Assembly: GCA_965203445.1 (NCBI GenBank)
Contig: OZ241883.1
Span: 2,208,001-2,272,000 of the forward strand
Source: Candidatus Oxydemutator sp.
Lineage (GTDB): Bacteria; Pseudomonadota; Gammaproteobacteria; Poriferisulfidales; Oxydemutatoraceae
Reading direction: 5' to 3'
DNA length: 64,000 bases
In this document: positions 61,082 to 64,000 of the stretch, one piece after another
Numbering within the stretch: the first letter of the stretch is position 1
Layout: each line of letters begins with the position of its first letter
Translations under genes and position numbers: made by a program
The notes under the pieces: generated by a model
What the model saw: only the letters and a program-made list of their open reading frames with translations
Database searches by the model: none
What the model was told of the DNA's origin: nothing

Positions 61082-61918
61082 ATGGATAACTTGATAGAGA
61101 CCATCGAACGCGCGTTCGAGGAGCGCGATACGATCACGCCGGCGGACGCGCCGCCCGAAGTGACGGCGGCGGTCGAGCGCTGCCTGGCGGGGCTTGACGA
61201 CGGCAGTCTGCGCGTCGCCGAGAACAGCGACGGCACATGGCGCGTTCACGAGTGGCTGAAGAAGGCGGTGCTGCTGTCGTTCCGGCTGTTCGACAACCGC
61301 GTCACCGACGCCGGCTACACGCGCTTCTACGACAAAGTGCGCCTCAAATACGCGCACCACGACGAGGCCGCGCTGAAGGCAAGCGGCGTGCGCGTCGTGC
61401 CGGCGGCAATCGCGCGCTACGGTTCCTACCAGGCGCCGGGGGTCGTGATGATGCCCTGCTACGTCAACGTCGGCGCCTACGTCGGGCGCGGGACGATGGT
61501 GGACACGTGGGCGACGGTCGGATCGTGCGCCCAGATCGGCGCCAACGTCCACCTGTCCGGCGGCGTCGGCATCGGCGGCGTGCTCGAACCGTTGCAGGCG
61601 GCGCCGACCATCATCGAGGACGACTGCTTCATCGGCGCGCGTTCCGAAATCGTCGAGGGCGTCATCGTCGAGCGCGGCGCGGTCGTCTCGATGGGCGTCT
61701 ATATCGGGCGCAGCACGCGCATCTACAACCGCATGACCGGCGAAATCGGCTACGGGCGGATACCGGCGGGCGCGGTCGTCGTGCCCGGCAATCTGCCGGC
61801 GGCGGACGGCAGCCACAGTCTGTACTGCGCCGTCATCGTCAAGCAGGTGGACGAGAAGACGCGCGGCAAGGTCGCGCTCAACCAGCTGTTGCGCGATCCT
61901 GGGGAATTATATATCTGA
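61082..61918 (+). CDS. dapD: Tetrahydrodipicolinate N-succinyltransferase; last codons supplied by the inserted element
   Basis: [33 protein letters not shown]; stop lies within the left TIR. Confidence 0.96.
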
Positions 61919-63187
61919 CACCACCAAACGATATTGAATGAAGACGCACCGAACAATCAGATACCGACTGCATCCACGTACACGGGCCAAGGCGCACAAG
62001 TTGGCAGGCACCGCCGGTGCGTGCCGTTATGTATGGAATCATTTTGTGGGGAAGTTGAGGGACGAGTATCGTTACTATGGCAAGAGTAATTTGGAGTTGG
62101 GTATCGTGGATTACAGGTTTTATTCCATGGGCAAGTTGTTCACTGTATTGCGCAGGTATTCCGTGCCCTGGTTGCAGGGGTATTCGATGCCGATAGTGCG
62201 CGGGGCGCTGAAACCGATAGAGACCGCATACAGGCAATTTTTCAAGGAGGAAGGCGGCCTGCCAAAATTTCACGCCAAGTATGTGCGTCCCGATAGTTTC
62301 CCGTTAGTGGCAGGGACGTTCCGTCTGACAGGCTGTTATCTGCATATCGCCAGGGTAGGTGAGGTGCTGTTGTCGGGACACAACCCGTATCCTGATGCCA
62401 AACCTGTATCGGGTACTGTAAAGAAGGAATGTGGGAAGTGGTACGCCTATATCGTATATGGGGTTGGACAGGCAGAGGCGCCAAGGTCGGACAAGTCCGT
62501 GGGTATAGATAGGAATGTAGGCCAGGTTACATGTTCCGATGGTATTGTGTACCGTATGCCGGACGCGTCGAAGCATGAACGGCGTGTCAAGCGTTATCAG
62601 AGAATGATGGCCAGGCGGCAGGGGCCGAACCGCAAGAAGGGGATCAAGGCGTCGAATAGATGGCTGCGTGCACAGTTGCTGCATCAAAAGGCGCAAGCCA
62701 CGTTGCGCCACGTCAGACAAAATTGGTGCCACGGCGTATCAAGACGTGTTGCCGTCAGATACTCTCACGTGCACCTGGAGAAATTGAGCAATCGGGACAT
62801 GACGGGAAGCGCCAAGGGCACGAAGGAGAAGCCTGGGACGGATGTCCGCGCGAAAGCGGGGTTGAACCGCGTGATACTTGCTTCCTGCTGGGGCAAGTTT
62901 CATCAATGCCTGGACTACAAAACGAATACGAACTACGTGAACCCCGCGTACACGAGCCAGACGTGCAACAAGTGCGAGAACGTGGACAAGAACAACAGAA
63001 AGACGCAGGCGGTATTCGAGCGTACCGTTTGCGGTCATCGGGATAATGCGGATGTGAATGCCACGCTGAACATATTGGCCCTCGGGAATAGGGCTGCTGG
63101 ACGTGGTAAAGCCGGAGGGGAGACTCATCCGGTGGAACGTCAAATGGATACACGGCATCGCTCGGTGGCGTCATGTATATAATTCCC
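61902..63187 (+). mobile_element. 1286-bp non-autonomous element carrying only tnpB, with 24-bp terminal inverted repeats and a degenerate 8-bp TSD
   Basis: Left GGGAATTATATATCTGACACCACC vs right (reverse complement) GGGAATTATATACATGACGCCACC, 21/24; flanks CGATCCTG / CGGTCTTG; lower GC than host. Confidence 0.9.
61938..63182 (+). CDS. tnpB: RNA-guided endonuclease TnpB family protein
   Basis: N-terminal YRLHP...GACRYVWN, RuvC-I VGIDRNV, Ruv[17 protein letters not shown] zinc ribbon, RuvC-III DNADVNA. Confidence 0.93.
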
Positions 63188-63192
63188 CGGTC

Positions 63193-64000
63193 TTGACTGA
63201 CGACGCCCTGCGGCTTGCGAAGGAACTGATTCGACGTCCGTCGGTGACGCCCGACGACGCCGGTTGTCAGCGACTGATCGCCGACTATCTGGCCGATTGC
63301 GGTTTCGCGCGCGAGGCGCTCGACTGCGGCGACGTCGCCAACTCGTGGCTGCGGCGCGGCGACGAACCGCCGCTGCTGACGTTCGCCGGCCACACCGACG
63401 TCGTGCCTCCGGGCGACGCCGCGCGCTGGAAGCATCCGCCGTTTCAACCGACCGAGGACGGCGGCCTGCTCTACGGACGCGGCAGCGCCGACATGAAAGG
63501 CGGCCTCGCGGCCATGGTTTGCGCGTGCCGGCGCTTCGTCGCCGAACACCCGAACCACCGCGGCTCGATTGCGCTGCTGCTTACGAGCGACGAAGAGGGC
63601 GCCGGCCGCGACGGCACGCGCCACGTGATCGAGACGCTGATGCAGCGCGGCGAGGAGATCACGTGGTGCGTCGTCGGCGAACCATCGAGCGAGGAGCATC
63701 TCGGCGACGTCATCAAACACGGGCGTCGCGGATCGCTGTCGGCGACGCTGACGGTGCGGGGCAAGCAAGGGCACGTCGCCTACCCGCATCTTGCGCGCAA
63801 CCCGGTGCATCTCGCGGCACCGCTGCTTATGAAACTGTGCGCCCAAAAGTGGGACGACGGCGACGAAAACTTCCCGCCGACCGGCTTTCAAATATCGGCG
63901 GTGCGCGCCGGCACCGGCGCCGACAACGTGATCCCGGGCGAACTCGAAGTGGACTTCAACTTCCGCTTCTCGCCGCGCACCGGCGAGGACGAGTTGCGGC
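63193..64000 (+). CDS. dapE: Succinyl-diaminopimelate desuccinylase (runs off the window end)
   Basis: TTG start; [48 protein letters not shown]. Confidence 0.95.

Follow-up and report, generated by a model that had tools for sequence, protein, structure and literature searches.

The stretch of DNA analysed here, which we refer to as the window, comprises 64,000 nucleotides of Candidatus Oxydemutator sp. (assembly GCA_965203445.1, contig OZ241883.1, positions 2,208,001-2,272,000 of the forward strand) and contains, between dapD and dapE, a 1286-bp unit carrying a gene for TnpB, a predicted RNA-guided nuclease. The boundaries of this unit, at window positions 61902-63187, can be read directly from the sequence. 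As the preliminary description of the window had claimed, tnpB is its only long open reading frame (ORF), and the 24-bp inverted ends and flanking 8-bp repeats proposed there were confirmed, the terminal inverted repeats (TIRs) matching at 21 of 24 positions and the flanking 8-mers, read as a target-site duplication (TSD), being identical at six of eight. A repeat search lengthened the ends to 32 nt with 84% complementarity (61901-61932 against 63157-63188). The tip of the repeat, GGGAATTATATA, is more than a chance motif, since with up to two mismatches it occurs six times in the window against 0.70 expected, a count reached by none of 100 shuffles, and with up to one mismatch 62 times in the genome against once for a reversed control pattern. 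Inverted ends combined with an 8-bp target duplication are the anatomy of a DDE transposon, and we consider the unit to be a non-autonomous member of an IS1595-family lineage, with an OMEGA module, consisting of tnpB and a guide-RNA scaffold, as its sole cargo (probability roughly 0.85).

The preliminary description also pointed to a second, diverged copy in the same window with the same ends and a perfect TSD, and this observation stands. The 507-bp sister cassette is flanked on both sides by CATCATAT (14910-14917 and 15425-15432) and carries GGGAATTATATACATGACACCATC at one end and a 1-nt deletion in the other. Its protein matches correspond to residues 1-115 and 352-414 of the window protein, and it retains a complete predicted guide-RNA scaffold (14918-15028, minus strand; 90.6 bits with the covariance model R1 described below). 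The genome, a single contig of 2,378,814 bp with 63.6% G+C that is rated 100% complete, contains, besides fragments, 13 full-length tnpB paralogs that are free of stops and share 58-100% identity with the window protein. Each of the 13 lies between GGGAATTATATA-type ends. The 8-mers flanking these cassettes are identical at all eight positions in eight cases, at seven in two, at six in two (including the window copy) and at four in one. The duplicated 8-mers are AT-rich, and the cassettes themselves have a G+C content of 44-55%. Inward of the first 12-13 nt the terminal repeats fall into about seven subfamilies. That of the window copy (..CATGACACCACC) comprises only three elements in the genome and one solo end in a genome of the same genus, and its clean sister copy (G000:C1:1720176-1721437, on the genome contig) has a TIR matching at 24 of 24 positions and a TSD at eight of eight.

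The genome also contains a transposase element with ends of the same kind. The IS1595 family is characterised by an 8-bp TSD, ends starting with GG and a transposase with Zn ribbon and DDE_Tnp_IS1595 domains (PMC8101967). PF12762 (DDE_Tnp_IS1595) has a single match in the genome, inside a 2616-bp element (G000:C1:1978350-1980965) that carries GGGAATTATATACTTAAATCTACAAA at both ends (an GGGAATTATATACTTAAATCTACAA repeat at each end, 26 of 30 positions matching) and is flanked by a perfect TSD, ATCAGAAA. With NF033547 its 314-aa transposase, which contains the Zn ribbon, reaches 205.9 bits (cut-off 75). Thus the autonomous partner with the same TIRs and an IS1595 transposase that the preliminary description predicted was found, and its transposase is the only one of this kind in the genome. 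In four cassettes (174463, 975120, 2133905 and 1233732) about 21-24 of the first 26 repeat positions are those of the partner repeat, by our own reading of the alignments, and the repeat of another cassette (..CAAAAATGCACCA) matches an IS1595 element of a same-genus genome. Two end types can be set apart, ..CTAAATCTACA and the ..CATGACACCACC of the window copy. The partner shows the TSD, end and transposase features of the family and the cassette only those of the ends; the cassette encodes tnpB alone, and the transposase domains are found only in the partner, so we regard it as a non-autonomous derivative rather than an insertion sequence in its own right. Cassettes outnumber the transposase element 13 to 1.

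Profile searches for Y1_Tnp and Resolvase gave no match in this complete genome; the same searches match 6 and 12 of 14 control genomes, respectively. Neither a Y1 TnpA nor a serine recombinase was thus found in place of the DDE enzyme, and the earlier proposal that an RNA-guided nuclease travels as a non-autonomous cassette of a DDE transposon family is supported by the TIRs, the TSDs and the IS1595 partner with shared ends. No element with transposase and tnpB inside one pair of ends was present among the examined loci, and three cases where tnpB and IS1595 are neighbours proved to be separately bounded cassettes. Of 35 IS1595 loci examined in the relatives, TIRs could be called at 27, and 19 of the loci are clean, independent insertions; IS1595 copies in relatives have GGGAAYTAT-type tips and 8-bp duplications. 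The end consensus of the ISNwi1 subgroup is presumably ggnnatTAT, which GGGAATTAT would fit; our literature search gave no statement of this consensus. The partner element carries a passenger, a 436-aa DNA methyltransferase fused to an HNH nuclease (L049, 66-1373, minus strand), and two IS1595 elements of relatives carry similar cargo, the same kind of fusion in a same-genus genome (L073, 2558-3760) and a methyltransferase-T5orf172 fusion in a same-order genome (L077, 254-1555). The genome has a further IS1595-like transposase fragment at G000:C1:512990-513433, a partial one with 42% identity over residues 13-158.

Table 1. Features of the tnpB cassette, its insertion site and the sister cassette, in window coordinates
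Feature	Position	Strand	Remarks
dapD	61073..61918	+	TIGR00965, 435.7 bits; last codons extend into the left repeat
Purine-N-purine GCG, proposed target-adjacent motif (TAM)	61891..61893	+	adjoins the 5' side of the left target duplication
Left copy of the 8-bp target-site duplication, CGATCCTG	61894..61901	.	sequence reading
Left terminal inverted repeat, 24 nt, GGGAATTATATATCTGACACCACC	61902..61925	+	tip GGGAATTATATA, common to the resident IS1595 transposase element
tnpB, 414 aa	61938..63182	+	RuvC triad D191/E281/D372 intact; third zinc-finger Cys replaced by Arg362
Predicted omegaRNA (reRNA) scaffold	63077..63187	+	overlaps the tnpB 3' end and stops at the element tip; R1 97.4 bits
Right terminal inverted repeat, 24 nt, reverse complement GGGAATTATATACATGACGCCACC	63164..63187	-	inner part is the 3' arm of the last predicted scaffold hairpin
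Right copy of the 8-bp target-site duplication, CGGTCTTG	63188..63195	.	includes the dapE TTG start
Predicted guide, about 16 nt	63188..63203	+	duplication and first dapE bases; inferred from scaffold end and purine position
dapE	63193..63999, past the window edge	+	NF009557, 397.4 bits; model alignment starts at residue 3
Internally deleted sister cassette, 507 bp	14918..15424	-	both ends kept; first ~110 tnpB codons and residues 352-414

The cassette family extends to related genomes. Among 40 relatives searched, 16 have a tnpB homolog (E <= 1e-30) and 26 an IS1595 transposase homolog (E <= 1e-10), including all 16 that are tnpB-positive, and only two have a match to Y1_Tnp. The relatives are not independent, and we therefore take this co-occurrence as a sign of consistency rather than a test. 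A scan of species-representative genomes with two narrow peptide patterns, which reaches close relatives only, returned 78 loci, labelled as Gammaproteobacteria, Arenicellales, Candidatus Porisulfidus, Candidatus Oxydemutatoraceae, Thiotrichales, Chromatiales and one Opitutales metagenome-assembled genome (MAG). Pooling the genome, its relatives and the named MAGs gave 121 tnpB loci, with 101 TIR calls. Clean calls, with a TIR of 19/24 or better and a TSD of 7/8 or better, numbered 51 and represent 45 independent sites from up to 22 genome labels, where the labels of the two sets may overlap. Copies with TIRs and 8-bp TSDs, which the preliminary description had expected, are thus found both within the genome, where 8 of 13 duplications are perfect, and at the 45 independent clean sites. 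Most loci without a TIR call (15 of 20) come from the named-MAG scan and many are labelled Arenicellales; in that group the elements are longer and their left ends fall beyond the search range. Cassettes of this Arenicellales type (L172 2418-4240, L177 2340-4240, L158, L160 and L178) measure 1.5-1.9 kb, have GGGACTTATATAC tips and contain about 300-650 bp of extra sequence upstream of tnpB. Once the left end was located, L172 and L177 showed perfect 8-bp duplications.

Two further groups of tnpB were seen in these searches. Relatives of the family we call f2 (for example G030, G032 and G034) contain a second and more distant tnpB clade in many copies, 34-41% identical and with open frames of 440-545 aa. 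Two tnpB genes on one Opitutales-labelled (Verrucomicrobia) contig (L148 and L149) are 56-57% identical to the window protein; amid matches otherwise labelled Gammaproteobacteria, these could reflect either transfer or mis-binning.

The window protein scores 177.7 bits against NF040570, guided_TnpB (cut-off 100). Among the Pfam models, PF07282 and PF12323 exceed their cut-offs and PF01385, at 25.6, falls short of 30.5. Asp191, Glu281 and Asp372, which align with the GvDlG, vEdL and rDeNA motifs of an ISDra2-like chain, are invariant in the 11 aligned paralogs, and the protein includes the sequence GIDRNV. The C4 zinc finger is incomplete, reading C343, C346, R362, C365, and the other ten aligned paralogs have cysteine at the third position. 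Passages in Altae-Tran et al. indicate that the zinc finger is absent from some TnpB branches (PMC10691335). Against the paralogs, the ratio of nonsynonymous to synonymous substitution (dN/dS) is 0.08-0.14 over the body of tnpB in the 13 intact ORFs, with dS saturated. In the tail of the ORF that overlaps the predicted RNA dS drops and the ratio rises, up to 0.43-1.05. These values indicate that the TnpB proteins are under purifying selection. As a member of the TnpB family the protein would cleave DNA in an RNA-guided, TAM-dependent manner. The best match by sequence among solved structures is Cas12n (9J09, E = 3.5e-18), covering residues 213-385 only, which is the nuclease half; the two proteins share an insertion after the RuvC-II glutamate.

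Within the cassettes the last 105-152 nt are conserved far beyond what the protein would require. A common fold, obtained with RNAalifold and single-sequence folds, begins with a 5' hairpin, GGCCYY-CGGGAAU-RRGGCU, followed by a long-range stem, GACGU..ACGUC, around a variable hairpin and then by the invariant CGUCAAAUGGAUAC. The 3' end consists of a terminal hairpin, in which the inner part of the right inverted repeat forms the 3' arm, and a tail, UAUAAUUCCC. The 5' arm of this hairpin varies with the repeat subfamily and the pairing is kept. In 12 sequences 97.2% of cells agree with the predicted pairing, compared with 29-51% after a shift of the partners by 1-3 columns, a contrast that is inflated because the structure was derived from the same 12 sequences. 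Covariation analysis of this set gave seven pairs with compensatory change, and none of 500 shuffles reached the observed score. A pseudoknot can also form, between GGGAAU in the stem-1 loop and the AUUCCC at the end of the right repeat. Variants retain this pairing as GGGAAC/GUUCCC in one paralog, GGGACU/AGUCCC in other genomes and, via a G-U pair, GGGAUU/AGUCCC.

The covariance model R1 finds 15 copies in the genome, namely the 13 cassettes and two deletion derivatives, and every match ends at the element tip; for the window scaffold the match is at genome positions 2271077-2271187. Rfam gave no match at E <= 10 over window positions 61800-63300. The models suggest a conserved structured RNA that stops exactly at the right tip, with the right repeat supplying both the last hairpin arm and the pseudoknot partner; each of the two pairings has support from covariation. 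A guide starting after this tip would begin with the target duplication, and its length in Table 1 follows the 16 nt of IS200/IS605 TnpBs. Two small units in the genome, of 163 bp (G000:C1:113341-113503) and 180 bp (757576-757755), have the same inverted ends (22/30 and 25/30) and no scaffold match with R1, and their flanking 8-mers agree at only five and two of eight positions; they resemble miniature inverted-repeat transposable elements of the same IS1595 lineage.

If the guide begins at the duplication, a TAM should lie directly 5' of the target in the empty site. We oriented the 45 independent clean sites by tnpB and numbered the flank such that -9 is the base just 5' of the left duplication copy, a position that the end-calling rule makes no use of. 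A purine occupies -9 at 44 of the 45 sites (28 G, 16 A, one T and no C; binomial p = 2.6e-12) and -11 at 36, and no duplication starts with G. On the right-hand side the mirror positions give no signal, with pyrimidines at 22 of 45 sites at +9 and 28 of 45 at +11. For autonomous IS1595 insertions treated with the same script, purines occur at -9 in 10 of 19 at one end and 5 of 19 at the other, and at -11 in 11 of 19; the comparison of 44/45 with 10/19 at -9 gives a Fisher p of 2.8e-5. A symmetric preference of the transposase fails to explain the purine, because the signal is missing from the mirror position and from the autonomous copies. The oriented purine may instead be the TAM, since it stands exactly where a guide starting after the tip would place such a motif. 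Cassettes of the Arenicellales type have AT at -10/-9 in all five left ends found, only two of them with a perfect TSD, and this may be a lineage-specific TAM. We also considered whether the purines could belong to a hybrid promoter; with the TATATA of the left repeat the -35 box would fall at -17 to -12, and no TTGACA-like bias was seen there, so this idea was discarded.

Taken together, these features suggest how the cassette may persist. The IS1595 transposase, supplied in trans, would bind the ends and move the cassette. RNA transcribed through the right end would then carry the 8-bp duplication and downstream flank as its guide, and TnpB with this RNA would cut the unoccupied allele, where purine-N-purine is followed by the single 8-bp target and its flank. 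Recombination with the occupied copy would restore or spread the insertion. The occupied site would be spared, because there the all-pyrimidine repeat tip ..TTCCC stands before the same target. Homing of this kind would keep only TAM-adjacent insertions and so account for a purine oriented with tnpB at 44 of 45 sites. That TnpB has been refitted to a DDE transposon in this manner, with the right repeat in the guide RNA, the TSD as guide start, a purine TAM and ..TTCCC as an 'anti-TAM', is a tentative proposal, to which we would give slightly less than even odds.

Several observations weigh against the IS1595 assignment or against this mechanism. The window copy lacks one of the four zinc-finger cysteines and its TIRs (21/24) and TSD (6/8) have diverged, so that it is probably an old insertion of doubtful activity. 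Its repeats share only the outer 13-14 nt with those of the resident IS1595 element, and a search of 40 relatives revealed no autonomous element whose inner repeat is ..CATGACACCACC. A TIR call was missing for 20 of the 121 pooled loci, and 50 of the 101 calls did not qualify as clean. Position -9 is T in two cleanly bounded Arenicellales-labelled copies, and a purine-N-purine motif is far less informative than the 4-5-nt TAMs of IS200/IS605 TnpBs. It is also less obvious how TnpB would benefit a DDE element, given that, as sections of a 2026 review point out, cut-and-paste excision already leaves a break (PMC13565253).

An alternative is that the cassettes are ordinary tnpB elements of the IS200/IS605 (IS1341-group) or IS607 type, moved by a Y1 or serine enzyme, and that the ends and repeats are coincidental or local. 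Solo tnpB elements are indeed common in the IS200/IS605 family (PMC13565253, passages on that family). The cassettes resemble those of the IS1341 group in having one gene of about 400 aa with a guide RNA over its 3' end, and by family hidden Markov models the window protein is nearer to IS200/IS605 TnpB (NF038281, 119 bits) than to IS607 TnpB (52 bits), both scores being below their cut-offs. According to the same passages, however, the IS200/IS605 and IS607 families have neither TIRs nor TSDs, and IS1341-group elements insert beside a 4-5-nt motif and depend on a Y1 TnpA (PMC13565253); the cassettes differ on all four points. Perfect 8-bp duplications at 8 of the 13 cassettes, clean ends at 45 independent sites, the lack of Y1_Tnp and Resolvase matches in the complete genome and the presence of the same ends around an IS1595 transposase leave this explanation hardly credible, and we regard it as already close to refuted. 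Alternatively, tnpB might be passenger cargo, or the relic of a composite IS1595 element, with no role in the life cycle, so that the cassettes would be decaying deletion derivatives. IS1595 elements do carry passengers here, in the form of the methyltransferase-nuclease fusions of the genome and two relatives, the window copy shows decay, and two deletion derivatives exist. This would not account for the 13 intact ORFs with a dN/dS of 0.08-0.14 (at saturated dS), a conserved RNA scaffold welded to the right repeat, or a flank purine that is oriented with tnpB and absent from autonomous copies; nor was any two-gene element seen among the examined loci, the neighbour cases being separately bounded. 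We therefore consider a mere passenger improbable.

A further alternative is that the flank purine is not a TAM and arises instead from the way the transposase chooses its targets, from base composition or from end calling. The signal amounts to only about 1-1.3 bits, insertions lie in AT-rich islands of a genome with 64% G+C, the sites kept as clean are a selection of 51 from 101 calls, and the cassettes within the genome are related to one another. Yet a symmetric preference would predict a pyrimidine at +9, seen at only 22 of 45 sites, the autonomous IS1595 copies give 10/19 and 5/19 with the same script, and the end-calling rule ignores -9. A different tnpB lineage furthermore has a different motif at the same place (AT at 5/5 left ends, two with a perfect TSD). 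On balance we think an origin other than a TAM unlikely. The protein with the closest solved structure, Cas12n, reads a purine-rich 5'-AAN protospacer-adjacent motif (PAM), as passages of its published description state (PMC12216341). This would argue weakly in the same direction, and it is a lead only, since the match covers the nuclease half. Cas12n (type V-N/V-U4, RdCas12n) is itself a CRISPR effector of 540 aa, and its PAM-reading half does not align with the window protein.

The occurrence of TnpB inside DDE transposons with inverted repeats is not new and has been in print since 2023. Passages in Altae-Tran et al. 2023 (PNAS) describe six DDE-associated TnpB branches, DDE-1 to DDE-6, with inverted terminal repeats, as well as solo TnpBs that have the ends of transposase-bearing elements, for which mobilisation in trans was suggested (PMC10691335). 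The likeness to the present cassettes is close. In those branches tnpB lies between TIRs with its 3' end near the transposon end, and solo copies share the ends of transposase elements; in DDE-5, according to the supplementary information, a motif lies 8 bp upstream of the transposon end, which is the place of the purine here (PMC10691335). Their association rule required a transposase within 1 kb of tnpB (PMC10691335), and in this genome the transposase is never that near. In the text of the supplementary information IS1595 appears only within a profile list, and the main-text passages on these branches do not name it; the present clade may well be among the groups in the figures or Additional Files of that study (PMC10691335). 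Sections of the 2026 review list ISL2, IS630 and IS1031 as the DDE families with TnpB, IS1595 not being among them, and treat both the rarity of TnpB-DDE ties in prokaryotes and the benefit of TnpB there as an open point (PMC13565253). A full-text literature search for TnpB together with IS1595, judged by titles and abstracts, returned no such element.

Three results go beyond this published outline. One is a co-resident partner in a complete genome. Another is the predicted guide-RNA scaffold, which appears to be welded to the right repeat and has a covarying pseudoknot. The third, the oriented purine signal, is the most interesting and also the least certain. Compared with IS1595 insertion sequences and their passenger-carrying or transposase-less derivatives, the cassette differs by its RNA-guided nuclease cargo and by an RNA built on the right repeat. 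The predicted guide RNA would thus be built physically on the putative binding site of the transposase. A counterpart exists in eukaryotes, where Fanzor1 and Fanzor2* proteins occur in TIR/TSD transposons, as reported in passages of Yoon et al. 2023 (NAR; PMC10711439). Some of these are likewise non-autonomous TIR/TSD elements with the nuclease alone, the TIR is part of the guide-RNA scaffold in Fanzor1, and TnpB and Fanzor2 RNAs have a pseudoknot adjoining the guide, as is predicted here (PMC10711439). The hosts differ, being bacteria in our case, and the partner here is an IS1595 element. In addition, Fanzor1 has a short constant TSD within the scaffold (PMC10711439), whereas the TSD here is variable and 8 bp long and would, to judge from the flank signal, supply the first 8 nt of the guide. 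The cassettes would represent a bacterial counterpart to the Fanzor elements of eukaryotic TIR transposons. With one IS1595 transposase, 13 diverged intact tnpB cassettes, known empty sites and a testable TAM prediction, the genome forms a compact natural test system, and it offers a set of compact nucleases of about 410 aa that may read a purine motif.

At the insertion site the target 8-mer takes in the dapD end as well as the TTG with which dapE starts, so both genes are still readable around the element. The C-terminus of dapD reads ..RDPGELYI* at the window compared with ..RDLD* in relatives. The preliminary description had called for empty-site alleles of dapD-dapE, and in three of three same-genus genomes the junction is indeed uninterrupted (..CTGTTGCGCGACCTTGACTGACGA.., with the target 8-mer CGACCTTG). 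Three sequencing runs were also compared with the window, all as contigs, in which uncovered parts are uninformative. A contig from one of these (run X3, from another study) joins position 61896 to 63191 and so skips 1294 bases, corresponding to the element and one duplication copy; it has a depth of 2 and 28 letters on the shorter side, which is weak support. The empty target in this contig, CGATCTTG, would place each duplication copy of the window one substitution away. Upstream of dapD, an ORF of 292 aa (60127-61005, plus strand) consists mostly of repeats of a 14-residue type and has a hydrophobic C-terminal segment. Elsewhere in the window, an intergenic segment at 44228-44270 contains two end-like motifs 31 bp apart, AGGAATTATATA and GGGAATTACACA, which may be remnants of element ends.

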